Assembly: GCA_049670545.1 (NCBI GenBank)
Contig: JBATTM010000416.1
Coordinates: forward strand, 1,264 to 65,263
DNA length: 64,000 nucleotides
From: Polyangiales bacterium
Lineage (GTDB): Bacteria > Myxococcota_A > Polyangia > Polyangiales > Houyiibacteriaceae
Direction of reading: 5' to 3'
Position 1 is the first letter of the stretch; the number at the start of each line of letters is the position of its first letter. Under the pieces are notes generated by a model that was not told the origin of the DNA, made no database searches, and worked only from the letters and a program-made list of their open reading frames with translations. Shown in pieces: positions 21,070 through 42,019 of this stretch. The position numbers and the translations under genes are program-made.

Positions 21070-22506
21070 CTAGGTCAACCGCGGAAGCGGCCCGTTCAGC
21101 GAGATCGTACTCGAGGCGAACTGCACTTGGTTCAGACCAAAAGACTGTCGATTCGTCATGCCCATGGCGTGCATCAGATTGACGAACAGGCGCTCCTGCG
21201 CGAACCCGATGTCGTGGTTCGACGAATAGGAAACGTCGATTGAGTTGTCTTGGGCGTAGTGCACGTAGCGCCCGGGTCGGAAGTACCCTCCGCCTCCGCC
21301 TGCGACCACGACTGGCGTGCGTTCGAGGCGGTGTCCGCCTGTTGCCAGTTCGCTGAGCCACACGACGGCAGTGTTGTCGAGCAGGGTCCCAGACCCTTCC
21401 TGAACACCGTCGAGCTGGTCCAGGAGATACGCGAAGTGCTCCGCGTACACCCGGTTGTAGTTGACCATCCCCTCGATGCCGGCGGTCGTGCCATCGTTCT
21501 CATCCGAGGCGTGAGCGATGTCCTGATGCATGTCGACGCCCGGCGCGAGTCCGAACTCACTCCCTGGGATGTTCTGCGTAACCAGCGTCACCACCCGTGT
21601 GAGATCACAAGCCAGCGAGAGCGTGGTCAGGCGTGAGAACTGGTCGATGACGTGACCCTGCGACGTGAACGTCGGATCGCAGCCCGAGATGGCGGGTGCG
21701 GGCATGCTCAACCCGAGTTCGAGATCGCGCACGAGGCTTCGGTGTCGCTCGAGCTTCTCTCGATCATCGGGGTCCAGCCGTGGCAAGACCGACGCAAACT
21801 CCTCAGCCGCCATGTCGAGGGCGCTCGCCCGCGCCGAACGAATCATATCCGTGCGCGAGGGCGCGGCCCCTGGATCGGACGGCTCTGGGGCAAGTCCGAG
21901 AATGTCGTTGAACGCGGTCTGCGGGTTCTGCTCCCTAGGCGATGGCTCGTTGCTGCCGAGGTAGCTGTATGCATGCTGGTGGTTGAATCCGTAAACGCGA
22001 CTGTTCCATCGACCGGGGACCCCCACCGTGTTCCCGATTTCCTGGTCGATGGAACGTGCCCCACCCCGTGCCGTCGAGGCACCCTGAAAGGCCCATGTGC
22101 TGGTCAGAAGGTGCGCCTGCGCGATATGGTGTCGGTTGACGTCGCCGCTAAAGCCTTCTTGGGCCACGCGGTACTCTTCGGCGAACGTTACGCCACGAGC
22201 AAGCCCATCGAGGATCAACAGTTTCTCGCGGTGACGATGAAGCGGCTTCAGAATATCGCTGAATTGGTTTTCACCCATTCCGCCGAGAGAGAAATCATAC
22301 TCCTCGCGATCCCGACCCGATTGCTTCATCGTCCAGCGGCCGGGCACGGTGCCGTGGGGCGTGATGAAGAACACGACGCGCGCGGGCATCGAGGACTGCG
22401 CTCGTGCGGAGCCGAACGGGAGCGACGGAAGGTAGAGAGAACCCGCCCCAAGGCCGAGAGCGGTCAGAAAGCGACGACGGTCGAGAATCATGGGTGCGCG
22501 ACTCAT
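21070..22506 (-). CDS. DUF1552-family protein with Tat-type signal
   Basis: Start MSRAPMILDRRRFLTALGLGAGSLYLPSL (twin-arginine signal) overlaps the upstream stop (ATGA at 22503-22506). It pairs with a DUF1592-type gene as in planctomycete and myxobacterial loci. The 642-aa track ORF is an N-terminal over-extension. Confidence 0.65.
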   Translation of the reverse strand: MSRAPMILDRRRFLTALGLGAGSLYLPSLPFGSARAQSSMPARVVFFITPHGTVPGRWTMKQSGRDREEYDFSLGGMGENQFSDILKPLHRHREKLLILDGLARGVTFAEEYRVAQEGFSGDVNRHHIAQAHLLTSTWAFQGASTARGGARSIDQEIGNTVGVPGRWNSRVYGFNHQHAYSYLGSNEPSPREQNPQTAFNDILGLAPEPSDPGAAPSRTDMIRSARASALDMAAEEFASVLPRLDPDDREKLERHRSLVRDLELGLSMPAPAISGCDPTFTSQGHVIDQFSRLTTLSLACDLTRVVTLVTQNIPGSEFGLAPGVDMHQDIAHASDENDGTTAGIEGMVNYNRVYAEHFAYLLDQLDGVQEGSGTLLDNTAVVWLSELATGGHRLERTPVVVAGGGGGYFRPGRYVHYAQDNSIDVSYSSNHDIGFAQERLFVNLMHAMGMTNRQSFGLNQVQFASSTISLNGPLPRLT

Positions 22507-24203
22507 CCGTTGTCTCCCGCAGTGCGAAGTCGAAACTCGGGACGCGTGACGAGGTCCACCAAGAGCTCGATGATGTTGCCGCCGTTGTCCTCGAACGCCC
22601 GTTGAAGAGCTTCGACTTGGCACGTGTCGGCGGGCTCCATGGGGCGCCCGTACGCATAGGTGAACCATTGTCGAACCACGCAATCGTGAACGACCGGGCT
22701 CTCGGCGAGCAGCGATTGAAGCTCGACTGCGCCTTCGTATTCGCCGTCGTTCTCGATTCCGGCGGCGAAGCCGGTCGCGTCGACCGGAAACCCATTGTCG
22801 ACCGTACGAAACTGACCTGCAGCGTCGTATTCTTCGAAGCCGTAGCCGAACCCGTCGATGCGTACGTGGCAGGTCTGACAGTCGGAGGGCGCGACTCGCT
22901 CCTCGAAGAGCTCCCGATTGGTCTTCGGGCCCGTGTTGGGATCCTGCGCCGGTGGGGAGATGTCCGCGTCGGCGGGCGGAGACTGACGGGGTTCGCACAG
23001 GATCCGGTCCATCACGAAGACCCCGCGAAGGGGGGGCGACCCGTTGGCGTCGTGCGCGTTACCCGCCAAGAACGCGAGTCGACTCAGAATCCCACCGCGC
23101 TCTGCTGGATTGAGTTCAACTTCGCCCCACGGTCCAACTGGCGCGTTGACCCCGTAAAGCTGAGCCGTCACGTCATCGACGTAAGCAACTGTGCTGGTGA
23201 GCAGGTCCGAAACCGTGCCGCCAGCAAGGACCGTGTTCTCCAAGAATCGCAGGGATTCTTCGCGAACGGACTGCTTGGCAGCATCGCCCCAGAGCGGGAA
23301 TTCATCCGGCAGCTTGTCCTCACCGAGGACACGGTCGAGATAGAGCCACTGTCGGTGGAAGTTGCGCACGGTGTTCCGTGCTCGGTCGTCCGCGAGCATC
23401 CGGCGTGCTTGCGCCTCGAGTTGCTCTGAGGTCTGGAGCGCGTCGGCCTCCGCCGCGTCGAGGAGCTGATCGTCCGGCATGCTCTCCCACAAGAAATAGG
23501 AGAGTCGGTTCGCGACCTCATACGCATCGATCTCGATCTGGCCGGGATCGCCTGAAGTCCCTCGGTCTTCGAGGCGGTAGAGAAACTGAGGAGACTGCAG
23601 CATCGCGGCGACGGTGAGCTGAAGGGCGGCATCGAAGTCGATATCGATGCGTCTGTCCTCGAAGAACGAAGCCCACCGATCGGTTTCGTCCGCGGTCAGC
23701 GGTCGCCGGAAGGCTCGCCTGCCGAACCTCTCGACGAATTCGCGTCCACATGCGGACCCGCCCCCGTTGGGATCGCATGGCAGGATCCGCGCGCGAACCT
23801 CTCCGTTGTTCGCCGCGTGCTCGCCGAGATCCAAGGCGGCGGTTTCGTAACGCGTGATGCGCACGTCGGACGGACCGAGCGAAGTCGCATCGTTTTCAAA
23901 GCTTCCTTCGAGCACCGCGTCACTCGGTTGCTCCGGAAGCGGCGGCATTGCACCGCCGAGTAAGTCACGAACCGTGTTGTCGTACTCCACGTTCGTGAGG
24001 CGACGAACTGGCGCTGTGCCCAGCTCGATCGCGTCCGGATTCTCGCAGATGAATTGTTCCTGCGAACGCCCGGGTCCCCCTGGGCCGTTGGGGTCACTTC
24101 CAACCCCTGCCCCACCAATGACACCCTCACACCCCATCAGCACCAGAAGGGCGCAGAAACACAGCGCTTTCGTTCCCCTCACACACATCCCACCCTGGTG
24201 CAT
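22503..24203 (-). CDS. DUF1592/DUF1588/DUF1585-family protein with a CXXCH heme-like motif
   Basis: 566 aa. Lipoprotein-like signal MCVRGTKALCFCALLVLMGC. C-terminal SDCQTCHVRIDGFGYGFEEYDAAGQFR is typical of this family. Confidence 0.6.
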   Translation of the reverse strand: MHQGGMCVRGTKALCFCALLVLMGCEGVIGGAGVGSDPNGPGGPGRSQEQFICENPDAIELGTAPVRRLTNVEYDNTVRDLLGGAMPPLPEQPSDAVLEGSFENDATSLGPSDVRITRYETAALDLGEHAANNGEVRARILPCDPNGGGSACGREFVERFGRRAFRRPLTADETDRWASFFEDRRIDIDFDAALQLTVAAMLQSPQFLYRLEDRGTSGDPGQIEIDAYEVANRLSYFLWESMPDDQLLDAAEADALQTSEQLEAQARRMLADDRARNTVRNFHRQWLYLDRVLGEDKLPDEFPLWGDAAKQSVREESLRFLENTVLAGGTVSDLLTSTVAYVDDVTAQLYGVNAPVGPWGEVELNPAERGGILSRLAFLAGNAHDANGSPPLRGVFVMDRILCEPRQSPPADADISPPAQDPNTGPKTNRELFEERVAPSDCQTCHVRIDGFGYGFEEYDAAGQFRTVDNGFPVDATGFAAGIENDGEYEGAVELQSLLAESPVVHDCVVRQWFTYAYGRPMEPADTCQVEALQRAFEDNGGNIIELLVDLVTRPEFRLRTAGDNG

Positions 24204-24361: not shown

Positions 24362-25405
24362 GTGAAACAGGGAACCCGACCGGGAGCCGACTACTCTGGC
24401 CGCGTGCGCAACTGGACGATCGGGGTCGTGGCCGCGTGCTGCATGTGGTCGGTGCTGAGCTTCGGGCAGGCCCCCGCCACGAGTTTCCTAGGCGAGCCCG
24501 ACGCGCCCCGGATCGCCGCTCTGCGCGAGGGGACCATCGCAAGCGTGAAAAAGGGGAAAGGCGGACGCAGCCTCGCCTTCAAGATCACCTTGGACAACGG
24601 CGTCGAGGGCTACTTCAAACCCACGCAGCGCTTCTCGGCCGCCCACTGGTATTCGGAGCTCGCCGCATACTACCTGGATCGCGAGCTCGGTTTCGGGCGG
24701 GTCCCTCCGACCACGGGGCGCGCGTTCCAGTGGGAACAACTCCGCCGGGCCGCCGGCGCTGACAAGCGGGTCGATGAGCTTCAGCACGCGAAGCACGGAC
24801 AGATCACGGGCGCCTTCATCTGGTGGATCCCCGAGCCATTGAAACGCCTGCGACTCGGACGAGGATGGGAGCGCTGGGTCCGCGTTCAGGCGACGCTTCC
24901 GATCACGCCCTATCAACGCCCTGTCGATTACCGCGCCGACCTTCGAGGATCGCCCGGCGTACGGGAAGCGACCGATCCGAGCCGGCCGACCGCCGGTGCG
25001 CCCCCAACGCCAATGCGCCCGGCCGAACTCTCCGATCTCATCGTCTTCGACTACCTGACCCAAAACGTCGATCGATGGGGAGGCGACTTCACGAACGTTC
25101 GGACCCGCGGTTCAGGCGGTCCGCTCATCTATCTCGACAACGGAGCCGGATTCTGGCTTGGCGATCAGCGGCTCGGGCTGATGGAGGCTCGGTTGAGAGC
25201 CGTCCAGCGTTTCCGGCGCGCGACCGTCGAGGCCGTCCGCAACCTCGACATCGAACGCTTCGCCGCGCGTCTCGCAACGGATCCCCTCGCCCCCATTCTC
25301 AACGAAAAACAGCTCGACGGGCTGCGGCAGCGACAAGCCGCGTTTCTCACGCACGTCGATCGAATGATCGCACGCTTCGGTGAGCCGCAAGTGCTTGCGT
25401 GGTAA
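24362..25405 (+). CDS. Secreted FAM20-like (Golgi casein kinase-like) protein kinase homolog
   Basis: GTG start and signal-like TIGVVAACCMWSVLSFGQA. Ordered motifs GYFKPTQ, ELAAYYLDRELGFGRVPPTTGR, FDYLTQNVDRWGG and IYLDNGAGFW parallel FAM20C motifs (FKPM, EIAAFHLDRILGFRRVPP, FDFLIGNMDRHHYE, HLDNGRGFG; recalled from memory). Confidence 0.6.
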   Translation: MKQGTRPGADYSGRVRNWTIGVVAACCMWSVLSFGQAPATSFLGEPDAPRIAALREGTIASVKKGKGGRSLAFKITLDNGVEGYFKPTQRFSAAHWYSELAAYYLDRELGFGRVPPTTGRAFQWEQLRRAAGADKRVDELQHAKHGQITGAFIWWIPEPLKRLRLGRGWERWVRVQATLPITPYQRPVDYRADLRGSPGVREATDPSRPTAGAPPTPMRPAELSDLIVFDYLTQNVDRWGGDFTNVRTRGSGGPLIYLDNGAGFWLGDQRLGLMEARLRAVQRFRRATVEAVRNLDIERFAARLATDPLAPILNEKQLDGLRQRQAAFLTHVDRMIARFGEPQVLAW

Positions 25406-25414
25406 AGTCCCGCG

Positions 25415-26413
25415 ATGAGGGGGCGGCTTCGCATTCCAGCCGAGTGGGAACGCCATGCATGCGTGTGGCTCGCCTTTCCCCACGTGGGCGCGGAGTGGCC
25501 GAGCGGCCTCACGGGACCGCAGCGTTCGATCGCCGAACTCGCCCGTACAATCGCGGAGGTAGGCGCTGAGCCCGTGCGGCTGCTCGTCACCGATGGCGCC
25601 CACGAGGACAGGGCCCGTCGGTGGGTCGGTGAGGTGGACGGGGTCGAGTACGTCACCGCGCAGTACGGCGACTGCTGGACTCGCGACACGCTGCCGCTGT
25701 TCGGCGTCACGGATGAGGGAGAGCTCGGCGCCGCGCGGTTTCAGTTCAACGGGTGGGGCGGCAAGTTTCCGATTCCGGGCGACGACACGGTCGGGAGAGA
25801 CGTTGCGATGCGCGCCGACGCCGTAGATCGACCGATCGCGATGTGTCTCGAGGGTGGGGCGCTCGATTTCAACGGCGATGGCATATGCCTGACGACGAGG
25901 TCATGTCTCTTGAACTCCAACCGCAATCCTGGGCTCACCGAACGGCAGGCCGCCGAAGCACTGCGCACCACCTTCGAGGCCGACTCGATCATTTGGCTGA
26001 CCCGGGGCCTCGAACACGACCACACCGATGGTCACGTCGACAACGTCGCCCGGTTCATCAACGCCGATACCGTCGCAGTCACCGAGGCCCCCCCCGGTGG
26101 CCCGAACCTCGAGACGCTGCAGCGGGTCATGCGCGAGCTCGAGGACGCCGGACTCCGCGTCTTCCCGCTTCCGTCCCCCGGGCGCATCCTCGCCGACGAC
26201 GGATCTCCGCTTCCCGCGACCTACTGCAACTTCTACGTCGCGAACGACGCCGTGATCTTCCCGTCCTATGGCGTCGCGCAGGACGAAGAGGCAGCCGCGC
26301 GCCTCCGAGACGCCTTTCCGAACCGAACCGTGGTGGGTCTCAGCGCGAAGGGCTTGCTCTCGGGCGGGGGCGCGATTCATTGTGTCACCCAGCCTCAGCC
26401 TTGGTTGCCATGA
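25415..26413 (+). CDS. aguA: Agmatine deiminase
   Basis: RIPAEWERHACVWLAFPH, DCWTRDTLP, CNFYVANDAVIFPSYG, and C-terminal GGGAIHCVTQ (catalytic Cys). Confidence 0.88.
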   Translation: MRGRLRIPAEWERHACVWLAFPHVGAEWPSGLTGPQRSIAELARTIAEVGAEPVRLLVTDGAHEDRARRWVGEVDGVEYVTAQYGDCWTRDTLPLFGVTDEGELGAARFQFNGWGGKFPIPGDDTVGRDVAMRADAVDRPIAMCLEGGALDFNGDGICLTTRSCLLNSNRNPGLTERQAAEALRTTFEADSIIWLTRGLEHDHTDGHVDNVARFINADTVAVTEAPPGGPNLETLQRVMRELEDAGLRVFPLPSPGRILADDGSPLPATYCNFYVANDAVIFPSYGVAQDEEAAARLRDAFPNRTVVGLSAKGLLSGGGAIHCVTQPQPWLP

Positions 26414-27273
26414 CTTCTCCACCCCTCATGATCGCCGTCGTTCAGTGCCCACTCGACGCGGGGCGAGCCGAGAACGTCGCGCGAATCGAGCACTGGATCC
26501 GTGACGCGGCCGCGAAGGACGCGAGCGTGATCCTGACCCCGGAGCTGTTCGAGGGGCCGTACTTTCCGCAAACCATGGACGAGGCCGAGCGGGGGCGAGC
26601 CACCCGACTCGAGGGGCACCCCACACTCGCAAGAATGAGTGCTCTCGCGCGGGAGTTGTCGGTCACCCTCCCGATCTCCGTGTACGAAGAGGCAGACGAC
26701 GGACGCTACAACAGCCTGGTCGTGATCGACGCGGATGGCAGCGACCTCGGGATCTACAGGAAGGCCCACATCCCGGACGGCCCGGGGTATGAGGAGAAAT
26801 TCTACTTTTCGCCTGGAAACACGGGCTTTCGAACGTGGCAGACGGCCTCCGGCTGCCTCGGTGTCGGGGTTTGTTGGGATCAGTGGTTTCCAGAGTCTGC
26901 CCGCGCGATGAGACTTCTCGGCGCGGACATCCTGCTCTACCCAACTGCGATTGGGACCGAACCGGCAACTCCCGGAGAGGACAGCCGAGAACCGTGGCGC
27001 CGGGTCATGATCGGCCACGCCGTGGCGAACGCCACACCCCTCGCGGCGGCCAATCGGGTGGGCTTCGAGGGAGACCTCCAATTCTACGGAAGTTCTTTCA
27101 TCTGCGACCATCGGGGAGAGCTCCTCGCCGACATGGGGCGCAACGACGAGGGAGTTGCCATCGCCGAGATCGATCGTGACGCCATCGCGCGCTATCGACG
27201 CAACTGGGATTTCCTGTCGGACCGCCGTCCCAAACTCTACCGCGGATTGGTCGATGATGACGCCGTGGAGTGA
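26410..27273 (+). CDS. aguB: N-carbamoylputrescine amidase (CN-hydrolase family)
   Basis: ATG 26410 overlaps the aguA stop (ATGA). The Glu-Lys-Cys triad contexts are present (TPELFEGPYF, YRKAHIPDGPGYEEKFYF, VGVCWDQWFPE). Confidence 0.85.
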   Translation: MTSPPLMIAVVQCPLDAGRAENVARIEHWIRDAAAKDASVILTPELFEGPYFPQTMDEAERGRATRLEGHPTLARMSALARELSVTLPISVYEEADDGRYNSLVVIDADGSDLGIYRKAHIPDGPGYEEKFYFSPGNTGFRTWQTASGCLGVGVCWDQWFPESARAMRLLGADILLYPTAIGTEPATPGEDSREPWRRVMIGHAVANATPLAAANRVGFEGDLQFYGSSFICDHRGELLADMGRNDEGVAIAEIDRDAIARYRRNWDFLSDRRPKLYRGLVDDDAVE

Positions 27274-27856
27274 GCATCTATACGCCATCGTCGATGCCGA
27301 GTTGGCAAGCGACCCGATTGCGCTGGCGGAGCGCGCGCTATCGCACGGCTGCGTCGCGTTGCAGCTCCGCGCCAAACGTCTTCACGACGACGCGGCGCTC
27401 GAACTCGCTGCAACGATCGCGCGCGCGTGCAAGCGCCACCGCGTCCCCTTCATCGTCAACGACCGTCCGGATATCGCGGTCTTGGTCGATGCCGACGGGG
27501 TTCACCTGGGACAAGACGACATGCCGATCGCCGATGCCCGCAGAGTCTTGGGATCGCGCGACATCGGCATCTCGACGCATCGTCTCGCAGAGGCTCTCGA
27601 AGCCGACCGCGCAGGCGCCGATCGCATCGCGTTCGGTCCCGTTTTCGAGACGTCGAGCAAGGCGAATCCGGACCCTGTGGTCGGGCTCGATCAGCTTCGC
27701 GAGGTCTGTCGATCGGTATCCCGGCCGGTGGTCGCAATTGGCGGAATTCGCGGCGAAAACGTCGGATCGGTGCTCGCCGCGGGAGCCAAGGAGTTCGCGG
27801 TGATCTCGGCGCTGCCGGCGTTTCTAGAGGCGCTTGACGGGGTGCGCGATCAGTAG
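27254..27856 (+). CDS. thiE: Thiamine-phosphate synthase
   Basis: LYAIVD...GCVALQLRAK...VPFIVNDRPDIAVLVDADGVHLGQDD...FGPVFETSSK...VVAIGGI. The start (ATGATG at 27254/27257) overlaps the aguB end by about 20 nt. Confidence 0.85.
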   Translation: MMTPWSEHLYAIVDAELASDPIALAERALSHGCVALQLRAKRLHDDAALELAATIARACKRHRVPFIVNDRPDIAVLVDADGVHLGQDDMPIADARRVLGSRDIGISTHRLAEALEADRAGADRIAFGPVFETSSKANPDPVVGLDQLREVCRSVSRPVVAIGGIRGENVGSVLAAGAKEFAVISALPAFLEALDGVRDQ

Positions 27857-28614
27857 CTCTGGTTCGCCTCTTCGAAGTACTGGATCGCCGTCTCGATCGC
27901 GGCGCCGAGGGCCTGATTGATCAAGTTGGAGGTCGCGTCTTCCCCACTTCGAAGCGCTTCGTAGTAGCGCTGCCGCTCGGTTGCATGAATCACCACAGGC
28001 GGGAACCCCGCGCGCATCAAGATGAGATTCATGACGAGCCGCGCGACCTTTCCACTGTGTCGCGGGAACGGGTAGATCTGGAGCAACTGGTGATGGGTCT
28101 TGCTGGCCATCCGGACCGGATGCATGGACTTCTTCGTCTCGGGCTCCCCGAGCCATTGGACGAGCTGGCGCATGCGGTAGCTGATCTTGTCCGGCTGGGC
28201 GATCTCGTGAAAGTAGAGACGGTGCAGCGGCATGTCCTTGCGGTACTTGGGTGGACCCTTGCCCTCGAGCTCTTCGGGAGCGAGCTGTGCGAAGAGCTTC
28301 TTCATCACGTCGAGGTTGACCGTGAACCGCCGACGCGTAGACATCTCCCGGATGATCTCGATCGCGCCCATGTGGTTGCGAATCTCGTCATAGACGGGGA
28401 TCATCGACGCGTCCGCCGCCACGTCGTCCTCGAAGGCCCCGCGAAGCTCGTCCATCGAGTAGACGACTCCTTCGAGCGCGCTGTCGTGGTAGATCCACGC
28501 GAGGTCGAACCGCGATTGATACTCCTGGCGCACGTCTTCGCCGGCCGCATCCATCAGTTCTTGCAGATGTGCAACCCGCTCTTCTAAGTTGGGACCTTGA
28601 AGCGCCTGGACCAA
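27850..28614 (-). CDS. Fic/Fido-fold protein with degenerate active-site motif
   Basis: 254 aa. The region IYPFPRHSGKVARLVMNLILMRAGFPP aligns to the Fic motif HPFx[DE]GNGRxxR, but His is replaced by Tyr and GNGR by HSGK. The N-terminal DSALEG resembles an off-register inhibitory helix motif. Confidence 0.6.
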   Translation of the reverse strand: MVQALQGPNLEERVAHLQELMDAAGEDVRQEYQSRFDLAWIYHDSALEGVVYSMDELRGAFEDDVAADASMIPVYDEIRNHMGAIEIIREMSTRRRFTVNLDVMKKLFAQLAPEELEGKGPPKYRKDMPLHRLYFHEIAQPDKISYRMRQLVQWLGEPETKKSMHPVRMASKTHHQLLQIYPFPRHSGKVARLVMNLILMRAGFPPVVIHATERQRYYEALRSGEDATSNLINQALGAAIETAIQYFEEANQSY

Positions 28615-28711: not shown

Positions 28712-29257
28712 CTAGTTCATGGCCTCGGAAATCGCGTCCCGGAGGTCGGATTTGCTGGGAACCCCGCTCTTGGCCCATCGGACCATGCCATCGGGGCCGA
28801 TGACCACCACGGTGGGCAGCATCTTCACGTCGTAGCTCCGCTGCGCGGACCCGCCGCGATCGTGGAGGGTCGGAAACGCGGTCCCGAAAGCAAGGTGCGC
28901 CGCCTGAAGGCGCTGCCGGTCGATCGCCTCGACGTTGATCGCGTAGAACATGACGCCCTCGGGCGCGAACTTCTCGTAGAGAGCGTTCAGAATCGGAGAG
29001 GTCCGTCGGCAGGCGGTACACCAACTCGCCCAAAAATCGAGAACCACGACGCCCCCCTGAAGCGCCGAAAGCTGCACCTGGGCAGGGCTGTCGACATCGC
29101 CGCCGGCGGCCACCGGCAATGTGATGTCCGGCGCCTCGTCGCCGACGAGCGGGAGTTCCGCAGCACGTGTGGCGAGCGTGTACACGACGAACACGATCGC
29201 CCCGATGGCAATCCACTGAAGCCAAGGATTGCGTCTCGGTTCGGGTGGCGAGCTCAT
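28712..29257 (-). CDS. Membrane-anchored thioredoxin-like thiol:disulfide oxidoreductase (TlpA/ResA family)
   Basis: N-terminal TM helix WLQWIAIGAIVFVVYTLA, then VVVLDFWASWCTACRRTSP (CxxC). The start overlaps the kinase stop (ATGA). Confidence 0.85.
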   Translation of the reverse strand: MSSPPEPRRNPWLQWIAIGAIVFVVYTLATRAAELPLVGDEAPDITLPVAAGGDVDSPAQVQLSALQGGVVVLDFWASWCTACRRTSPILNALYEKFAPEGVMFYAINVEAIDRQRLQAAHLAFGTAFPTLHDRGGSAQRSYDVKMLPTVVVIGPDGMVRWAKSGVPSKSDLRDAISEAMN

Positions 29258-30765
29258 GGCGCGTCCACGAGGGGAAGCTCGATCCGAAAGCGAGCGCCGC
29301 CCTCAGGCGCAGCATCCAGCGTGACTTCGCCACCGTGTTCGAGGACGACCTTCTTGACGATCGGAAGGCCGAGGCCGGTGCCCTCGGTCTTGGTCGTGTA
29401 GTAGGGATCGAATACGCGTTCCCGGTCGTCCGCGGGGATACCCGGGCCATTGTCCCGAATCTCGATGAAGGCGCACCCATCCAAAGGATACGCGCGAACG
29501 AAGACGTGCCCCCCACCCGTGGGATTGATCGCGTACACAGCCTGGATCGCGTTTCGCAAGATGTTGTCGATGCCCCGGCGGAGCATCATGGGGTCCATAC
29601 GCACGTGCATCGGTTTCGTTGCACGATCGACCCGCACTTCGACCGGGGCGGGCCCATCGATCCCGATATCTTCGAGCATTGCGGGCACCGAATCCTCGAT
29701 CGAATGGACGAGATCGCTCAGCTCCGCCTCGGACAGGTCGGCCCGGGGGAGCTTGGCGAATGCGCTGAACTCACCCACGAGTCGACGGAGCGTCGCCACT
29801 TCCTCCTCGATGATCGCGCGCGCATGTTCGAGCTTCTCGCGATACTCCGCATCATCCCCCTCGTAGGTGTCGTCCAACTCCTGGGCCGCAAGCTGAATCG
29901 GCGTGAGAGGGTTCTTGATCTCATGCGCGAGGCGGCGCGCGAAGTCTTGCCAGGCACTGATTCGCTGAAGGTATTCGATACGCGTACGCGAATCACGAAG
30001 GTCTCGGACCATGTCGTTGAACGCCTGCGTGAGCTCGGTCACCTCGTCGTTCGCCACGGTCGGCAACGTGACGGTGAAGTCGCCAGCGCCCACACGACGA
30101 CTTGCCTCCGCAAGCACGGTGACGCGCCGGGTCACGCGACGCGAGGCGACTGCGCCGATCAGGAACGCAACGACGATGACCAAGAACACCAGCACCCCAA
30201 ACACCCATACGTATACGTCCGACACGGATGCGCTTTGCCGCTGGAGACGAGAATAAACCTCGGCAGCCTCGCCGGCCCGCTGCATCCGCTCGAAGTAGGT
30301 CTCGGGGACCGTCACCTCGACTGCCACGCGGTAGAGCCTTCGATGTGCCTGAATCTCGCGAGTCCGTACTGTGGCCCGGACCGCTTCGGGGAGCGTGGCG
30401 GGCTCGCCCGAGGCGACGGCAAGCAGGTCGTCGCGCTGGAATAGCTCGATCGTCCGAACGCCCGGATATCGCTCGATGAGGCCTGCCAACAACGCCTCGA
30501 CGTCGCCGAGAGTCTGGCGTCGCAAGAGCTCGGATTCAACGGCCCACGCGACGGCATCCGCAACCTGTTCCGACCCGTCTCGCAGGGCCATGAGCTGCCC
30601 ACGTCGGGCCTCGACGCCGGCACGGAGCTCCTGGCCGAAGCCTTCGTTCACGCCAACCTGGTACACCTCCCGCAGAGCACCCTGCGCAAAGAAGATGGCG
30701 CCCCCGAGCGTGAGAACGACCGTAAGCCCGATGACGAAGAGAATCTTTCTTTCGAAACGACTCAC
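29254..30765 (-). CDS. NtrY-like sensor histidine kinase (TM-HAMP-HisKA-HATPase)
   Basis: H-box HEIKNPLTPIQLAAQEL, HAMP-like RRVGAGDFTV...VTELTQAFNDMVRDL, and N/G boxes NAIQAV ... DNGPGIP ... GTGLGLPIVKKVV. No response regulator is adjacent. Confidence 0.88.
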   Translation of the reverse strand: MSRFERKILFVIGLTVVLTLGGAIFFAQGALREVYQVGVNEGFGQELRAGVEARRGQLMALRDGSEQVADAVAWAVESELLRRQTLGDVEALLAGLIERYPGVRTIELFQRDDLLAVASGEPATLPEAVRATVRTREIQAHRRLYRVAVEVTVPETYFERMQRAGEAAEVYSRLQRQSASVSDVYVWVFGVLVFLVIVVAFLIGAVASRRVTRRVTVLAEASRRVGAGDFTVTLPTVANDEVTELTQAFNDMVRDLRDSRTRIEYLQRISAWQDFARRLAHEIKNPLTPIQLAAQELDDTYEGDDAEYREKLEHARAIIEEEVATLRRLVGEFSAFAKLPRADLSEAELSDLVHSIEDSVPAMLEDIGIDGPAPVEVRVDRATKPMHVRMDPMMLRRGIDNILRNAIQAVYAINPTGGGHVFVRAYPLDGCAFIEIRDNGPGIPADDRERVFDPYYTTKTEGTGLGLPIVKKVVLEHGGEVTLDAAPEGGARFRIELPLVDAP

Positions 30766-31358
30766 TTCGGGACCTCGATGTTCTTTCCTCGAAACTGAAC
30801 CGTGCGCTCGGCGCGGCAGATTCGCCGACGCACGATACTCACGGTGATCGGGCCAATCGGATCGTCTCCGCCGGAGGGTCCGATCAACTCACGGCACTGC
30901 TTGTCGGAGATGGGATTGAACTCGGCAACGACCGAAAAATAGATCTCCTGCCCCTGATACGGGGAATAGCGGGCGGAGTCGTCGCCCACGAACAACCCTT
31001 GCACCACGAGGCAACGGTTGAGCGCTTCATCGAGGGTCAGGAAGCGCTCGGTTCGATTGGCGATGCGGACGAGGTAGCCCTCCTCCCAGAGGTCTCGCGT
31101 GGCATCACAGCCGAACTGGCGCTCGACGATCGTGCGCCCCGAGCCACTGACTTTCGCAGCCACGGTCACGACGAAACGCTTGCGCAGCGCGCTCTGCAGC
31201 TCCTTGCGCACGCGTTCGTCTGCGAGATCTTTGGCCGAGAAGCTGACGCGCGGGGCGCCCCGGGCCCAGGACACGCCGATCTCGCGCATCGGGGTGCCCT
31301 TTTGGGCAGTTGCGCCAGCCGCGACGACCAGCACCAGTGCTATCGCCCACCGCTTCAC
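30762..31358 (-). CDS. Secreted protein, DUF4390-like
   Basis: Signal MKRWAIALVLVVAAGATAQ. 198 aa. Its position immediately upstream of an NtrY-like kinase matches DUF4390 genes in other proteobacteria. ATGA overlaps at both ends. The family assignment comes from context and a weak motif impression. Confidence 0.45.
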   Translation of the reverse strand: MKRWAIALVLVVAAGATAQKGTPMREIGVSWARGAPRVSFSAKDLADERVRKELQSALRKRFVVTVAAKVSGSGRTIVERQFGCDATRDLWEEGYLVRIANRTERFLTLDEALNRCLVVQGLFVGDDSARYSPYQGQEIYFSVVAEFNPISDKQCRELIGPSGGDDPIGPITVSIVRRRICRAERTVQFRGKNIEVPK

Positions 31359-33097
31359 AGGCGAATGAACCCCAGAATCGTCGAGAAACCGACTTGGAAG
31401 ACCCCGACGCGCGTGTCGAACCGGAATCCAAAGTCGAACGTCAGATCGAGGGGATACCGCGAAAAGCCCGAATACCCGTCGATGCCGAGCCGCGTGTCGC
31501 GGATGTCGGACAAGGAGTACAGGCCGAGAAGCATGTACAGGTTGATCTCGCGCAGCCCGTTGTCCCGGACTCGCTCATAGACCGGGATGTCGTATCCGAT
31601 GTCGAGTCGCCAAGCGAGTTCGCCGAGATAGCTTGCGTCGATCGACGTGTTGAGCAGATTCGGCGCACGTCTTCGGTCCAGTTGCATCTCGAGGAAGCGC
31701 GAAGGGACGAGGTCGGTCAGGTCCGACACGTGAAAGAGATAGAAGAACGGCGTGTTCCCGAACGCGACTCCGCCGAATGCCCCGAATCGAATCGTGTGAT
31801 TCCAGGGGAGTCGCCACCAACGGCGAATCCATACTTCGAGCTGTAGATAGTCGTAGTCACTGCCCAAGAACCGCGTCCCGGCCGATACCGAGCCGCGCAG
31901 CAGAACACCCTCTTTCGTGATGCCTGGATCGTCCCTACGATCGAGAATCAACGCGAAGCGGAGCGTCGAGACGAAGCTGTGCCCGTCCTCGATCGCGAAA
32001 TCGATCGGACTGATCGTATTGCCCCGCGGCTCGCTTGCAGCTTCCGGGCGATTCAAGACACTGACGATGTCGCCGACCCAGTCGAGCGTGTAACGCACCG
32101 TCGAGGTGATGTCCTTGGCGACCCCCACCATGAAGCCACCCCGGCGATACCGAACCACCGCGCTGTCGACGATCGACGTGCCGGGGCAGGTGGGCTGCCC
32201 GCAAGGCACGCTGACCAACGGCTCGTCTCCGTAGAACTCGCGCCCGTTCAGAAAGAACGTGCCAAACCGAACCCCGTACTCGTCCTTGATCAGCTTCGGG
32301 TACCGAAGGTCGAGCCGTCCTCCCTGGTTGAACTGGCTCAGCAGCGCCGTTCCCGAGAGACGAATCCCAAGTCCGGCGAGGTTCGTCTCGGTCAGCTTGA
32401 AGCCTAGCCAGGGCGAGAGCTCCCGACTGCGGTTGGTCTGGAGCACGCCCTCGGAAAGGCCGGCCACCAGCTGCTCGATCACGATCGTGTTCCGCTCCTC
32501 CACGTCCACGATCAGGATCGCGTAGCCGGGTTTGGTTCCGCGCTCGAGCCGGATGTCGACCCAATTGAACCAACCTGTCCCCATCAATCGCCACTCCGTT
32601 GCGAGAAGCTCCGGAGACTCCGGATCGAGGAACTGGCCGGGTTTCAGCGGGAGGAATTTTCGAATCACCTTCGACTTGGTGCGCGTGTTCCCGACGACCT
32701 CGATCCGCTCGAGGATGTATCTCACCTGCGATGAGATCTGTTGTGGGGCCCGTGCATCGCTTGGCGTGCCGTACGGATCCGAGAGCTCGTCGTCGACCGC
32801 AACAGGCGGCGGCCCTGGCACGAGCTCGCCCGGCACGTAGGGCTGGGGGTCGCCGCGTGGCGGTGTCTCGATCTCGTCAGGGGCGCCAGGTTGGTAGGGC
32901 GTGCCTTCAGGCCAGTCAGGCGCGTCGTCCTGCGCGTGCGCCAGGTGTCCGTTGGACGACAGCATCGCCATGAACGCCACCATGGCGAGCATTGCGACGA
33001 TCAGGCATCGAAACCCACGTCTCGGTCGCAAGCGCGCGCCCACGACGGCGAGGTTACTCCAGCGGCGGAAGATCCGCGAGAAGCCAGAGGCACCCAA
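31355..33097 (-). CDS. Omp85/BamA-family outer-membrane protein (single POTRA + beta-barrel)
   Basis: POTRA-like VRYILERIEVVGNTRTKSKVIRKFLPLKPGQFLD, preceded by a Pro-rich linker. The C-terminal ~380 aa have alternating beta-strand patterns. The start may be internal (MLAMVAFMAML, coordinate 32992). Confidence 0.7.
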   Translation of the reverse strand: MGASGFSRIFRRWSNLAVVGARLRPRRGFRCLIVAMLAMVAFMAMLSSNGHLAHAQDDAPDWPEGTPYQPGAPDEIETPPRGDPQPYVPGELVPGPPPVAVDDELSDPYGTPSDARAPQQISSQVRYILERIEVVGNTRTKSKVIRKFLPLKPGQFLDPESPELLATEWRLMGTGWFNWVDIRLERGTKPGYAILIVDVEERNTIVIEQLVAGLSEGVLQTNRSRELSPWLGFKLTETNLAGLGIRLSGTALLSQFNQGGRLDLRYPKLIKDEYGVRFGTFFLNGREFYGDEPLVSVPCGQPTCPGTSIVDSAVVRYRRGGFMVGVAKDITSTVRYTLDWVGDIVSVLNRPEAASEPRGNTISPIDFAIEDGHSFVSTLRFALILDRRDDPGITKEGVLLRGSVSAGTRFLGSDYDYLQLEVWIRRWWRLPWNHTIRFGAFGGVAFGNTPFFYLFHVSDLTDLVPSRFLEMQLDRRRAPNLLNTSIDASYLGELAWRLDIGYDIPVYERVRDNGLREINLYMLLGLYSLSDIRDTRLGIDGYSGFSRYPLDLTFDFGFRFDTRVGVFQVGFSTILGFIRL

Positions 33098-33986
33098 TCA
33101 CCACGAGGAAGACACCACCCACCCAGCCTAGGGTGCGCCAAAACCCAATCGCGCGTCCGTCGTCTTTCGACTTCACAGCAGGCGTTGTAGCAGATTCTCT
33201 CGGCAACGAGGGAGAATAGTCGAGCGAGCTCCAGAGCTCGGGCGGCTCGTCCAGATCGGACATCTCCGGCCGCCTCACGATGCGGATCGTGGCGTCCTCG
33301 TCCCGCTCCATCTGCGGCCGAAGGCCAGAAACCGGGGTGTCGTCGCGCCTTCCCGGCAGGGTTTCGGGCTCGATGCCGGCTTCCCGAAGCGCCTCTTGGT
33401 AGGCCTCGACGGTGGCAACTTCAGTGGGGCTGCTCAAGTGCGCGGGGGTCTTGTCCTTGAGCGCGGGAGGCAAGGTCTCTCGGGGCGGGGGGACCGCGTC
33501 GACGCGAAATGTGCCGTCGGTCCACTCGAGCGCGTCCACGAAATCCGCGGCCGTCCCTCCATCGATGCTGACGTCCTCGAGCTGCCCCTTCTCGTAGTAA
33601 CCAATCGCAAGACGTCCCCGGTGTTCGAGAAGGAGCCGCCCGGTCAATCCAGCGCTCTCGCAGTAGCGCATCAGATCGGCCGGCGGGTGCACGCCAAGCG
33701 AACCGCGGCGGGTGGTATCGGTCCCTCGGGTCACGGGGAGATGGGGAAGCTTCGGGTACACCGCGAACTCGCCGTCCCGAAGAGACAAGAGTGTTTCGAC
33801 GGCGCGCTCCGTATCCTTCGTGGAGTCCGCCTCGGCGATCTGGCCGTGGATGAGTTCGACCGCACCAGAACCTTCGTTGCCTCGGAATGCCAAGACGCCC
33901 GAAGTCCCCATCTCCTCGAGCCCGCCGAGAAGATCCGCGACCCCTTCTTCAGGAATGGCGCCTTCGAAAACCGCTTCCGTAGCCAT
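33054..33986 (-). CDS. Tandem DUF4388-domain protein with C-terminal TM anchor
   Basis: Two DUF4388-like segments (GVLAFRGNEGSGAVELIHGQIAEA ... DGEFAVY; LTGRLLLEHRGRLAIGYYEKGQL ... DGTFRV), a Pro-rich linker, and a terminal helix WVGGVFLVVIGCLWLLA. Confidence 0.55.
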   Translation of the reverse strand: MATEAVFEGAIPEEGVADLLGGLEEMGTSGVLAFRGNEGSGAVELIHGQIAEADSTKDTERAVETLLSLRDGEFAVYPKLPHLPVTRGTDTTRRGSLGVHPPADLMRYCESAGLTGRLLLEHRGRLAIGYYEKGQLEDVSIDGGTAADFVDALEWTDGTFRVDAVPPPRETLPPALKDKTPAHLSSPTEVATVEAYQEALREAGIEPETLPGRRDDTPVSGLRPQMERDEDATIRIVRRPEMSDLDEPPELWSSLDYSPSLPRESATTPAVKSKDDGRAIGFWRTLGWVGGVFLVVIGCLWLLADLPPLE

Positions 33987-34074: not shown

Positions 34075-35346
34075 TCAGGGGAAAATCCCTCGTTCCGCAT
34101 ACGATGTCGCCAGACTCTCGAGGGCCAAAGCGTAAGCTGCAATACGGGGATCGGTCTTCTTCTCCGATGCGAAAAACATCGTCCGTTGGTAGGCGCGCCG
34201 AATGATGTGCAGCAACCGGCGTTGCACCTCTTCGGAATCCCAGTGCTCGCTGTTTCGGTTCTGCACCCACTCGTAGTAGCTGACCGTCACGCCACCCGCG
34301 TTGGCGAGCACATCCGGAATGACCGCGATGCCGCGATCCTTCAGCACCGCCTCGCCGGCAGGATTGATCGGACCGTTCGCGCCCTCTGCGACGAGGCGTA
34401 CGGTGAGCGCGGTCGCCTCTTGCGCGCCCACCTGATTCTCGAGCGCGGCGGGAATGAAGAGGTCCGCCTTCGTTTCGAAGAACTCGGTTCGAGAGATGCT
34501 CTCGCCACGTGGGTAGCCCTCAATCGATCCGTGACGGCGCACGTAACCCTGCAACTTGTGGGCGTTGAAACCCTCTTCATTGCGGAGGTATCCGCTGTGA
34601 TCTCCGACCGCAATGGTCGAGACACCCAGCTTGGCGAGCAGCAGCGCCGTGTTCGACCCCACGTTGCCGAACCCCTGGACGATCGCGGTGCAGCCTTCGA
34701 GCTCGAAACGATGGTCCCGCGCCCACTCTTTGATGCAGTGCACGACGCCTTGCCCCGTGGCCTTCTCGCGGCCTTCGGAACCGCCAGCGTTGATCGTCTT
34801 TCCCGTCACCACAGCGCGCTGATCGTTCTTCTCGTAGGTCGGCCCCGTGTTGATGTAGGTATCCATCATCCACACCATCGTCTGTGAGCTGGTCCCGACG
34901 TCTGGGGCCGGGATGTCGTGCGAGGGCCCGATGTTGCTGCCGAGCGCGTGCGTGAATCGTCGGGTGATGCGACGGAGCTCGTCCTCGGAGTGCTCCCGGG
35001 GGTTGAACTTGATTCCGCCCTTTCCGCCCCCGAACGGGACTCCGAGGAGCGCGCACTTCCACGTCATCTGCATGGACAGCGCTTTGAGTTCGTCCAGAGT
35101 GACGTCTTGGTGGTACCGGGTGCCCCCTTTGTACGGACCCATCACATTGTTGTGTTGGACGCGATATCCCTTGAACAAACGGTTCTTCCCGTCGTCCATG
35201 CGAACCGGGAAGTGCACGATGATCTCGTTCTTGGGCTCGGACAGAATCTCCCGGACGTGGTCGGGCAGATCAACGACTCTGGAAGCCTCGTCGAGATACC
35301 CCTGAACGACCTGAAAGAAGGCAAACTCCTCAATCGCGGACGACAT
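34075..35346 (-). CDS. gdhA: NAD(P)-dependent glutamate dehydrogenase
   Basis: KGGTRYHQDVTLDELKALSMQMTWKCALLGVPFGGGKGGI (catalytic Lys region) and Rossmann VQGFGNVGS. Confidence 0.92.
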   Translation of the reverse strand: MSSAIEEFAFFQVVQGYLDEASRVVDLPDHVREILSEPKNEIIVHFPVRMDDGKNRLFKGYRVQHNNVMGPYKGGTRYHQDVTLDELKALSMQMTWKCALLGVPFGGGKGGIKFNPREHSEDELRRITRRFTHALGSNIGPSHDIPAPDVGTSSQTMVWMMDTYINTGPTYEKNDQRAVVTGKTINAGGSEGREKATGQGVVHCIKEWARDHRFELEGCTAIVQGFGNVGSNTALLLAKLGVSTIAVGDHSGYLRNEEGFNAHKLQGYVRRHGSIEGYPRGESISRTEFFETKADLFIPAALENQVGAQEATALTVRLVAEGANGPINPAGEAVLKDRGIAVIPDVLANAGGVTVSYYEWVQNRNSEHWDSEEVQRRLLHIIRRAYQRTMFFASEKKTDPRIAAYALALESLATSYAERGIFP

Positions 35347-36280: not shown

Positions 36281-37159
36281 TCAGCTGCCGAAGCCGGCGA
36301 CGAACGTGCCGTAGATCCAAGTCGCTGGCGCTGTGAAGACGAGCGCGTCGACGCGGTCGAGAAGACCACCGTGGCCGGGAAGAATTCCGCCACTGTCCTT
36401 CACGCCCGCGCTTCGTTTGAGAACCGATTCGAAGAGATCGCCAGCTTGACCCGCAACCCCCGCCACGATCGCGAGCGCGACCGCATCGAGGGCGGGCAGC
36501 GCGGGGATGAAGAGGCTGATGAGCACCGCGAAAAAAACCGACCCCGCAAGACCGCCGGCGGCGCCTTCGACCGTCTTTTTTGGGGAAATTCGAGGCGCGA
36601 GCTTGGTCCTACCGAACTTTCGCCCGACGAAGTACGCCGAGGTATCACTTCCCCACGCGATCGCGAATGCAAGAAGAACCCAAGCGCCGGTGGGCGGGAA
36701 GTCACGCACGAGATCAACCGTCGCGAGCGCGCCGCCGACGTAGATGGGCGTGGCAAGCAGCCATCCAATGTGCACGCTCGCGTTGTGCAGCGGATCATCT
36801 TGCAACATCCCGAGCACCATGGTCGCAACGATGAGCAGCAAGACGACCAGGTACACTTGCGCGATCGTCGTGCCGAAGATCACCGCGCACGCGAACGCAA
36901 CCGACGAGACCGAACCCCATACGCGCAAGCCGCGCGACGAGCGTGCCTTCATCCCCATCATCTCATAGCCGCCGACGGCGATCGCACTCAGGATGAAGAC
37001 ATGCCAAACCCATCTCCACCAACTCATCGAAGGCGATTCCGGGTCGTAGAACATCATGAACAAGATCATCGGGATCAGCGGCACGACGGTGGCCACACGG
37101 AGCGCCGTGCCCGACAGCCGTTTGCGCCCATCGTGGGTATGCTCGATCGACTCACTCAT
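36281..37159 (-). CDS. cdsA: Phosphatidate cytidylyltransferase
   Basis: Polytopic membrane protein with the CdsA signature GSDTSAYFVGRKFGRTKLAPRISPKKTVEGAAGG ... LKRSAGVKDSGGILPGHGGLLDRVD. Confidence 0.9.
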   Translation of the reverse strand: MSESIEHTHDGRKRLSGTALRVATVVPLIPMILFMMFYDPESPSMSWWRWVWHVFILSAIAVGGYEMMGMKARSSRGLRVWGSVSSVAFACAVIFGTTIAQVYLVVLLLIVATMVLGMLQDDPLHNASVHIGWLLATPIYVGGALATVDLVRDFPPTGAWVLLAFAIAWGSDTSAYFVGRKFGRTKLAPRISPKKTVEGAAGGLAGSVFFAVLISLFIPALPALDAVALAIVAGVAGQAGDLFESVLKRSAGVKDSGGILPGHGGLLDRVDALVFTAPATWIYGTFVAGFGS

Positions 37160-37932
37160 ACGGCATGCTCCAATTCGTCAGCCGAAGACTCCGGGGTCGA
37201 CTGCCCACGCGGCTCTGGAACCAAGCCAAACCGGCGCTCGCGCGCTTGGTAGCAAGTGAGGGCGTAATATAGCGAATTTGCATCGCAATTTGGCCAAAGC
37301 TCATCGGTGAAATGAAGCTCGGCGTACGCCGACGCCCACAGGAGAAAGTTGCTGATCCGCTGCTCGCCACCCGTGCGAATCAACAGGTCGACGGGGCCTG
37401 GCACCATCGACGCGAGATGTGTTTCGATGTGCTCGACATCGATGCGCTCTGGGTCGATCGAACCTTGTTGCGCTGCGCGTGCGAGTGCGCGTGCAGCGTC
37501 CGCGATCTCTTCACGGCCACCGTACGAGAGCGCAAGCGTGAGGGTCATGCCGTCACAGTTGCGTGTGTCGTCGATCAGAGATTGCAAACGTTCGCGCGCC
37601 AGCGAGGGCAACTTGTGCAGGCGACCGATCGCGCAAAGCCGGATGTCGTTGTCGATCAGTTCGGCACGCTCGGACACGAGATGCGCGCACAAGAGATCAA
37701 CGAGTGCGTCGACTTCCCCGCGCGGGCGATCCCAGTTCTGTTCACTGAATGCGTACAGCGTGAGTGCGGGGATTCCGAGTCGCCGCGCGGCGCGCATCAC
37801 CCGCCTCACCGCGTGGGCGCCGCGTTCGTGTCCGGCAGTGCGCGGCATCCCCTGCATCTGCGCCCACCGCCCGTTGCCGTCCATGATGATCGCGACATGC
37901 TTCGGGAGGCGGCTCACGTCGACCAAACCCAT
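37156..37932 (-). CDS. uppS: Undecaprenyl-diphosphate synthase (cis-prenyltransferase)
   Basis: HVAIIMDGNGRWA, FSEQNWDRP, LIRTGGEQRISNFLLWASAYAELHF. ATGA overlap with cdsA. Confidence 0.92.
   Translation of the reverse strand: MGLVDVSRLPKHVAIIMDGNGRWAQMQGMPRTAGHERGAHAVRRVMRAARRLGIPALTLYAFSEQNWDRPRGEVDALVDLLCAHLVSERAELIDNDIRLCAIGRLHKLPSLARERLQSLIDDTRNCDGMTLTLALSYGGREEIADAARALARAAQQGSIDPERIDVEHIETHLASMVPGPVDLLIRTGGEQRISNFLLWASAYAELHFTDELWPNCDANSLYYALTCYQARERRFGLVPEPRGQSTPESSADELEHAV

Positions 37933-41943: not shown

Positions 41944-42019
<76 letters not shown>

Follow-up and report, generated by a model that had tools for sequence, protein, structure and literature searches.

No function was known for the DUF4390 domain before the 2026 genetics on PlrP of Bordetella. 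PlrP is a secreted DUF4390 protein of 203 amino acids (aa) whose gene overlaps that of the kinase PlrS by 4 bp. It behaves genetically as a third component that restrains the phosphatase activity of PlrS through the PlrS periplasmic domain, and it is the only DUF4390 protein to have been studied experimentally (PMC13001219). The domain has been reported only in beta-, gamma- and zeta-proteobacteria and in Magnetococcia, always together with ntrYX (PMC13001219). The NtrZ–NtrY–NtrX system of Caulobacter also includes a periplasmic regulator of NtrY phosphatase activity, NtrZ (as cited in PMC13001219). Here we describe a gene cluster in a 64-kb stretch of DNA from a Polyangiales bacterium (contig JBATTM010000416.1 of assembly GCA_049670545.1), in which a DUF4390-like gene stands between a gene for an Omp85 outer-membrane protein and a gene for a predicted NtrY-type sensor kinase. 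The whole stretch is referred to as the window, and all coordinates are window positions. An earlier reading of this DNA (the original prediction) could not match the module to any described system; its DUF4390 and NtrY part does match PlrP–PlrS of Bordetella (PMC13001219). We found no paper in the searchable literature that links Omp85 with DUF4390, which itself figures in only three papers there, and the pairing of an Omp85 protein with a DUF4390-like protein appears to be undescribed.

Layout and conservation of the cluster

Open reading frame (ORF) analysis identified five consecutive, co-directional genes on the minus strand within positions 28712-33986, as had been predicted. Gene 1 (33054..33986) encodes a 310-aa DUF4388/PatA_N (PATAN-type) protein that is predicted to be cytoplasmic with a C-terminal transmembrane (TM) anchor. 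Gene 2 (31355..33043, with an alternative start at TTG 33097) encodes a single-POTRA Omp85 outer-membrane barrel. Gene 3 (30762..31358) encodes a secreted DUF4390-like protein of 198 aa (p3), gene 4 (29254..30765) a sensor histidine kinase of 503 aa, and gene 5 (28712..29257) a membrane-anchored periplasmic TlpA/ResA-like thiol-disulfide oxidoreductase of 181 aa. The predicted topologies of the five products agree with the original claim that they span the cytoplasm, inner membrane, periplasm and outer membrane. Outside the span first considered, and 97 nt downstream of gene 5, a sixth minus-strand gene (27850..28614) encodes a Fic-fold protein.

Genes 2 to 5 are connected by three 4-nt start/stop overlaps: GTGA at 31355-31358 (genes 2/3), GTGA at 30762-30765 (genes 3/4) and ATGA at 29254-29257 (genes 4/5). 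The original prediction had placed ATGA at all three junctions; the overlaps are real, but only the one at 29254 reads ATGA. It had also noted a 44-nt overlap between genes 1 and 2 if the longer Omp85 start is used. This overlap exists only with TTG 33097 as the start of gene 2, and GTG 33043, 10 nt past the gene 1 stop codon, is the likelier start because it yields a normal signal peptide (MGARLRPRRGFRCLIVAMLAMVAFMAMLSSNGHLAHA/QDD) and because genes 1 and 2 are separated by 13-100 nt in relatives. Scans for promoters and terminators found nothing above shuffled expectation.

With one genome searched for each GTDB species, profile A1 (built from 22 close homologues of gene 3) recovered 46 loci, all from uncultured Myxococcota/Polyangiales metagenome-assembled genomes. 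In these loci, all six genes occur in unchanged order wherever the contig extends, and apparent synteny breaks in two of them (L029 and L037) proved to be scaffold gaps of N. The arrangement is also kept in 46 close metagenomic loci and is far beyond chance. The claim of a conserved, translationally coupled cluster is supported.

Independently of gene 3, metagenomes were searched from the Omp85 side (alignment A5), which gave 80 loci. Neighbouring genes were scored with a p3-family hidden Markov model (HMM) and the window proteins, and a locus enters the fractions given here only if its contig is long enough to hold the gene in question. The loci comprise close and intermediate relatives and group B, a Pendulispora/Labilithrix-type clade whose Omp85 is ~37% identical. 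A DUF4390-like ORF lies directly downstream of the Omp85 gene in all 72 scorable loci (45/45 close, 6/6 intermediate and 21/21 group B). A kinase gene comes next in 40/40 close and 3/3 intermediate loci (43/43 in the kinase clade) and in 0/18 group B loci. The accessory genes are distributed more patchily. The thioredoxin gene was found in 30/30 close, 1/3 intermediate and 0/16 group B loci, the Fic gene in 26/26, 1/3 and 0/15, and a DUF4388 gene upstream of Omp85 in 27/27, 2/3 and 0/15. A GST-like gene occupies the upstream position in 9/15 group B loci and in none of the close (0/27) or intermediate (0/3) ones.

The contrast between a pair found in 72/72 loci and a kinase found in 43/43 loci of one clade and 0/18 of group B leads us to read the cluster as layered. 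Its invariant core is the Omp85 and DUF4390-like pair, the kinase defines a subclade, and DUF4388, thioredoxin and Fic are accessories. The five-gene unit originally proposed is therefore not upheld as such. Close relatives keep the order of the five families, whereas group B retains just the Omp85 and DUF4390-like pair, the kinase is restricted to one clade, and the DUF4388 and thioredoxin genes come and go. The gene set should also not stop at five, as the degenerate Fic gene is as conserved as the thioredoxin gene and forms a sixth member.

The divergent loci illustrate this layering. L056 (p3 39% identity) carries DUF4388, Omp85, p3, kinase and an unrelated Ser/Thr kinase, and lacks thioredoxin and Fic; the thioredoxin gene is likewise not adjacent in L106/L107. 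Three other loci have Omp85, p3, kinase, thioredoxin and Fic without DUF4388: L057 (p3 40% identity), where a Rieske protein gene comes first, L058 (33%), where a glutamate dehydrogenase (GDH) gene comes first, and L059 (38%), where the absence of DUF4388 holds within contig limits. In L054 (Pendulispora brunnea) and L055 (p3 ~25%), a GST-like gene is followed by Omp85, a DUF4390-like gene with a 4-nt overlap and uvrC or a cyclase gene, with no kinase. Overlaps of 1-4 nt at the Omp85/p3 and p3/kinase junctions are kept in L001, L003, L056, L057, L058 and L059, and the Omp85/p3 overlap is also kept in L054 and L055. In a mirror-tree comparison, the five genes have distance matrices that are correlated at r 0.79-0.86 among themselves and at 0.71-0.76 with that of GDH, a weak and rate-confounded sign of co-evolution. 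The GST-like gene of group B (6606-7253 in L054 and 6614-7276 in L055) encodes a cytoplasmic protein with a thioredoxin-fold N-domain and lies 10-30 nt upstream of the pair, as another thiol-related neighbour.

Proteins of the cluster

Close homologues of gene 3 are numerous (59-77% identity, ~197 aa) and have in common a signal peptide (31305-31358 in gene 3, minus strand) and four Cys residues (codons at 31107-31109, 31011-31013, 30894-30896 and 30816-30818, minus strand) that are invariant across the 22 closest homologues. Profile A1, whose match covers residues 7-196 of gene 3, retrieved 150 proteins at E<=0.001 from 1.8 billion representatives, and these are mostly 200-225 aa long with full-length matches. 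The Pfam model of DUF4390, PF14334, was matched at E<=0.01 by 67 of 121 full-length gene 3 homologues (best 7.9e-13), and three relatives reach or exceed its cut-off of 27 bits: P0126 (profile E 6e-45) with 27.0 bits, P0133 with 29.0 and P0220 with 30.1. Because 67/121 of the profile-found homologues match PF14334, gene 3 is assigned by transitive homology to the DUF4390 superfamily, as a divergent member below the Pfam level. Of the family calls in the original prediction, those of DUF4388, POTRA/Omp85, kinase and thioredoxin passed HMM tests directly, and that of DUF4390 held only in this transitive sense.

An AlphaFold2 model of gene 3 built from a deep alignment (pLDDT 89.7) is a beta-sandwich with four helices. 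Foldseek searches of the PDB with this model and with a second one (pLDDT 74.9) returned no match at E<=0.001, and the best hits were to Ig-like domains with a TM score of ~0.3. A LolA/RseB-like reading was dropped, as early weak LolA-like matches were not reproduced, and longer 'fusion' proteins with a DUF4390-like part (eCIS_core, NAD_binding_7 or DnaJ) appear to be artefacts of gene calling and offered no clue to function. Exact sequence look-ups with the window version and the GenBank version of the protein found no record. GenBank starts gene 3 at an internal ATG (175 aa, WBG86_13270), which removes the signal peptide conserved in the aligned homologues. GTG 31358, which overlaps the Omp85 stop codon, is judged the better start.

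Several features of gene 3 recall PlrP. Its product is secreted, ~200 aa long and almost wholly taken up by the domain, and in the window its gene is immediately 5' of the kinase gene and coupled to it by a 4-bp overlap (GTGA), which is not so in group B (0/18).

The kinase itself also resembles PlrS in its TM–periplasmic domain–TM–HAMP arrangement, in its HEIKN motif and in a DHp-CA core that is closest to NtrY. Gene 4 encodes, on the minus strand, TM1 (30688-30744), a periplasmic loop of ~160 aa (residues 27-187, 30205-30687), TM2 (30148-30204) and three Pfam domains, HAMP (29992-30147), HisKA (29749-29952) and HATPase (HATPase_c, 29269-29595). The H-box reads AHEIKNPLTPIQL, with His281 of HEIKN at 29923-29925. 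A tblastn search with gene 4 against PLSDB matched more than 5000 records, and its best matches fall within ntrY genes. One top match is annotated ntrY (Sinorhizobium meliloti), and a Paracoccus match lies in an ntrB-ntrC-ntrY-ntrX-trkA-trkH context. In a BLASTP alignment with Paracoccus NtrY, identity is 42% over the DHp-CA region (residues 258-498) and 28% over TM2-HAMP, with domains in the same order. The HEIKN H-box and the core most similar to NtrY place gene 4 with the NtrY family. In the PlrS paper the HEIKN motif is associated with bifunctional kinase/phosphatases (PMC13001219).

Gene 2 has the architecture of the Omp85 superfamily, with a signal peptide (32933-33043), a Pro/acidic-rich linker (32729-32932), a POTRA domain (32492-32719) and a barrel (31358-32383), all on the minus strand. 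Pfam identified POTRA (PF07244) once, with 30.1 bits (cut-off 21.3), and Omp85 (PF01103) with 34.6 bits (cut-off 24). Every gene 2-type relative tested has a single POTRA, and the linker ahead of it varies among relatives in alignment A5. On the BamA equivalog model TIGR03303, gene 2 scored 73.1 bits where the cut-off is 297, and only model positions 316-614 (POTRA5 and barrel) were matched. A separate Omp85 gene in L059 (8177-10897), ~4 kb from the cluster, encodes a multi-POTRA protein of more than 1000 aa and scores 168.6 bits on the BamA model even though the gene is truncated; it is probably the housekeeping BamA. The single POTRA, the low TIGR03303 score and this separate BamA-like gene together indicate that the gene 2 type is a BamA paralogue distinct from housekeeping BamA.

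Gene 2 thus shares with BamA, TamA and PlpD a 16-strand-type Omp85 barrel after POTRA, with BamA POTRA5 and barrel as the best model match, but it has one POTRA where BamA has five and TamA three, and no patatin passenger. It also does not qualify as TamA by context: its adjoining genes are DUF4388 and DUF4390-like, and no TamB/DUF490 gene lies nearby, the neighbourhood being the only part of the genome checked for TamB. In the cultured carriers Pendulispora rubella and Labilithrix luteola, the gene 2 type is annotated just as 'BamA/TamA family outer membrane protein'. Upstream of the cluster, on the same minus strand, are uppS (37156-37932) and cdsA (36281-37159), and there is no rseP within 36281-37932. 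The classical setting of bamA in Proteobacteria is uppS-cdsA-rseP-bamA, and the Omp85 paralogue may sit near the ancestral bamA position. The possibility raised by these genes, that gene 2 is the housekeeping BamA itself, was rejected in view of its single POTRA and the separate BamA-like gene of L059.

Cysteines differ between the clades. The Omp85 proteins of the kinase clade have a close Cys pair (CGxPTC or similar), with at least 2 Cys in 45/45; in gene 2 this clade-specific pair is CGQPTC (32186-32203, minus strand). The pair is absent in group B, where Omp85 has 0-1 Cys in 24/25 loci. Likewise, the DUF4390-like proteins of the kinase clade mostly have four Cys, and those of group B have two in 21/24 loci. 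Such a pattern would be compatible with the TlpA-like protein serving as a thiol-redox accessory.

Gene 5 (minus strand) has the thioredoxin fold, CxxC motif and N-terminal membrane anchor of TlpA/ResA-type proteins, with a TM segment at residues 12-30 (29168-29224) and WCTAC at residues 79-83 (29009-29020). Its Pfam scores are 81.5 bits for AhpC-TSA, 69.7 for Redoxin and 38.5 for Thioredoxin. The closest NCBIfam models are ResA/TlpA, and no equivalog or subfamily cut-off was reached (ResA subfamily 87 bits against a cut-off of 170). The anchor, fold and WCxxC are shared with TlpA, ResA and CcmG; gene 5 differs from them in falling below the equivalog cut-offs, in overlapping a kinase gene and in not lying beside genes for cytochrome c or copper-protein maturation.

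Gene 6 matches the Pfam Fic family (PF02661) with 44.5 bits, and its catalytic motif is degenerate. It reads YPFPRHSGKVAR (28039-28074), with Tyr in place of His, and departs from HxFx(D/E)GNGRxxR. The same degenerate 12-mer is found in 70/74 gene 6 homologues, and gene 6 stands out as the best conserved of the cluster's genes, with 81-92% identity across species. Its product is probably a conserved pseudo-enzyme, and the gene accompanies that of the thioredoxin.

Gene 1, an accessory member, matches PF14332 (DUF4388/PatA_N) in two stretches with 45.3 bits against a cut-off of 25, and hydropathy indicates a single C-terminal hydrophobic helix (residues 286-304, 33075-33131). The PATAN domain PF14332 of cyanobacteria and myxobacteria is known to mediate interactions between proteins, one example being that with the type IV pilus motor (bioRxiv 10.1101/2021.06.11.447907). 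Gene 1 differs from described PATAN proteins in having no receiver domain, in its predicted tail anchor in the inner membrane and in its position directly before an Omp85 gene.

Around the cluster, the GDH gene (34075-35346, minus strand) precedes gene 1. Beyond gene 6, an ORF on the plus strand (24362-25405) has a Fam20C (Golgi casein kinase-like) C-terminal domain (33.8 bits). Beside it is an agmatine-deiminase-like gene (25415-26413), which in turn adjoins a CN-hydrolase gene (26410-27273), and this trio is conserved in relatives. A minus-strand gene at 22503-24203 encodes a Planctomycete-type PSD2-PSD5/PSCyt3 (DUF1585-1595) multi-domain protein, which relatives pair with an HXXSHH (DUF1552-like) gene. 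The only match in an Rfam scan was a tRNA at 41947-42019.

Candidate roles of the cluster

The reading we put forward, tentatively and as a plausible rather than a probable one, is that the cluster is a trans-envelope sensing operon. In it, the kinase would respond to the state of the Omp85 protein by way of the DUF4390-like protein and would signal to a regulator encoded elsewhere. From the gene content, family relationships, couplings and co-occurrence observed, we infer the following interactions, signal and output. The oldest layer would be an obligate pair, formed by a single-POTRA BamA paralogue of the outer membrane together with a DUF4390-like beta-sandwich protein that is secreted. 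In the window's clade, an NtrY-type, putatively bifunctional kinase (HEIKN, TM-loop-TM-HAMP, no PAS) would have been added directly behind the DUF4390-like gene. The DUF4390-like protein would then act as a go-between, associating with the Omp85 partner, probably via POTRA, and, depending on that association, binding the periplasmic loop of the kinase and setting its kinase/phosphatase balance, the role proposed for PlrP towards PlrS. Output would pass to an unlinked response regulator, probably of NtrX/NtrC type. The TlpA-like reductase, tail-anchored PATAN protein and pseudo-Fic would be lineage-specific accessories, and the reductase may act on the extra Cys pairs of Omp85 and the DUF4390-like protein in the kinase clade. 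This proposal draws on the conserved pairings, the kept overlaps, the DUF4390 kinship of p3, the NtrY-like core, the PlrP precedent, the Omp85 paralogy and the clade-specific Cys pairs. Envelope biogenesis and redox sensing, as suggested in the original prediction, are likewise candidate roles.

Among other systems, RcsF–BamA/OmpA–IgaA–Rcs of enterobacteria offers a similar logic, in that a signalling protein of the inner membrane learns how the outer membrane fares from a small envelope protein that engages an Omp85 machine. It is a working analogy only and implies no homology: RcsF, a lipoprotein, has no relation to DUF4390, works with the housekeeping BamA and is not encoded in an Omp85 operon. 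With NtrZ the likeness is one of concept, in that the activity of an NtrY-type kinase is set by a small protein of the periplasm; as described in the paper that cites it (PMC13001219), NtrZ is unlinked to ntrYX and is not DUF4390, and no Omp85 is involved.

Compared with PlrP–PlrS–PlrR, p3 is below the Pfam threshold and has extra Cys, the kinase has no PAS domain, there is no adjacent response regulator, the upstream position is held by an Omp85 gene in every case and not by rsmB, and the lineage is Myxococcota, from which the PlrP study did not report DUF4390. A number of observations weigh against the sensing-operon proposal. Gene 3 itself has no match in Pfam or NCBIfam even at E<=10, and thus does not reach the PF14334 gathering cut-off of 27 bits. 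In gene 4, Pfam found no PAS domain: HAMP ends at residue 258 and DHp begins at ~272, which leaves the NtrY segment ~380-495 unmatched. The periplasmic loop has no Pfam match either, where PlrS has a PDC-type sensor domain. As the original prediction stated, no NtrX-type response regulator is encoded here; searches for a receiver domain or an NtrX/NtrC-like ORF were negative in the window and within 10 kb in L001 and L003. By these comparisons, gene 4 has an NtrY-type core but is without the PAS domain and the neighbouring NtrX that help to define NtrYX. The pair occurs in group B without an adjacent kinase, and the DUF4390-like protein may primarily serve some purpose other than signalling. 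The correlation between Cys pairs and thioredoxin is phylogenetically non-independent and has exceptions in both directions, as L056 and L106/L107 have Cys pairs and no adjacent thioredoxin, and L058 has thioredoxin and a p3 with 2 Cys. Finally, the neighbourhood is itself syntenic in the lineage, with GDH upstream and thiE, CN_hydrolase, agmatine-deiminase-like/polyamine and Fam20C-like genes downstream, and adjacency alone is therefore weaker evidence within the close clade. On present evidence, this Omp85-bound, partly kinase-less DUF4390 branch of Myxococcota is not a categorically new system.

The universal pairing of Omp85 and p3 (72/72), kinase-free in Pendulispora/Labilithrix-type genomes, could instead point to a dedicated export or assembly device, in which p3 is a cargo that is displayed on the cell surface or released from it (a split type Vd or two-partner-like arrangement) or a non-lipoprotein accessory subunit of a specialised insertase, and the kinase regulates the device or is merely co-expressed with it and is not controlled by p3. 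Single-POTRA Omp85 proteins are known from type Vd PlpD, and the variable Pro/acidic-rich linker before POTRA is what would be expected of a periplasm-spanning tether. However, p3 has neither a TPS domain nor a C-terminal beta-signal, every kinase gene present shares a 4-nt overlap with p3, and the DUF4390 proteins of proteobacteria are tied genetically to a kinase and not to Omp85 (PMC13001219). We regard an export device as unlikely. A periplasmic thiol-redox sensor seems less likely again. Here, the TlpA-like reductase would keep the clade-specific Cys pairs of p3 and/or Omp85 reduced, and the kinase would read their oxidation state and not outer-membrane integrity. The ATGA overlap of the thioredoxin gene with the kinase stop codon and the presence of thioredoxin in 30/30 close loci are consistent with such a sensor, as is the contrast between the kinase clade (p3 mostly with 4 Cys, Omp85 with CxxxxC) and group B (2 Cys and 0-1 Cys, respectively). 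It is harder to reconcile with the exceptions in L056, L106/L107 and L058 described above and with the periplasmic loop of the kinase, which contains no Cys. TlpA-like proteins, moreover, commonly serve cytochrome or copper-protein maturation.

It is also conceivable, and in our view improbable, that only the Omp85 pair has a function in common and that kinase, thioredoxin, Fic and DUF4388 are kept in place by strong macro-synteny. Unrelated flanking genes do occur in conserved order (GDH in 19/21; thiE, CN_hydrolase, PAD_porph and Fam20C), and DUF4388 and thioredoxin are inconstant. Yet the start/stop overlaps persist at 33-40% p3 identity while the upstream flank varies (NiFe hydrogenase in L003, M61 peptidase in L056 and the Rieske protein in L057), and the p3/kinase overlap mirrors that of plrP/plrS.

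Bearing on DUF4390 and NtrYX-type signalling

The survey defines an uncharacterised Omp85 paralogue family in Polyangia, with cultured carriers in Pendulispora and Labilithrix; all carriers of the full cluster are uncultured. The tie to Omp85 is without exception in the sampled loci and provides a testable idea, that the contact partner of DUF4390 proteins is a barrel of the outer membrane or its POTRA. The layout of the locus also fits NtrYX-type signalling as a pathway that responds to the state of the envelope. This is in line with a Rhodobacter study that reports an NtrYX envelope regulon (PMC7240162).

A bolder extension of the sensing-operon proposal, which we consider possible but doubtful, is that these proteins represent a new class of transducer from the outer to the inner membrane. 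The barrel would serve as sensor or docking site, the DUF4390-like protein would shuttle or bridge to an NtrY-type kinase, and binding of Omp85/POTRA would be ancestral for DUF4390 proteins, including PlrP. If such ancestral binding is true, NtrYX-type systems would be outer-membrane surveillance pathways.

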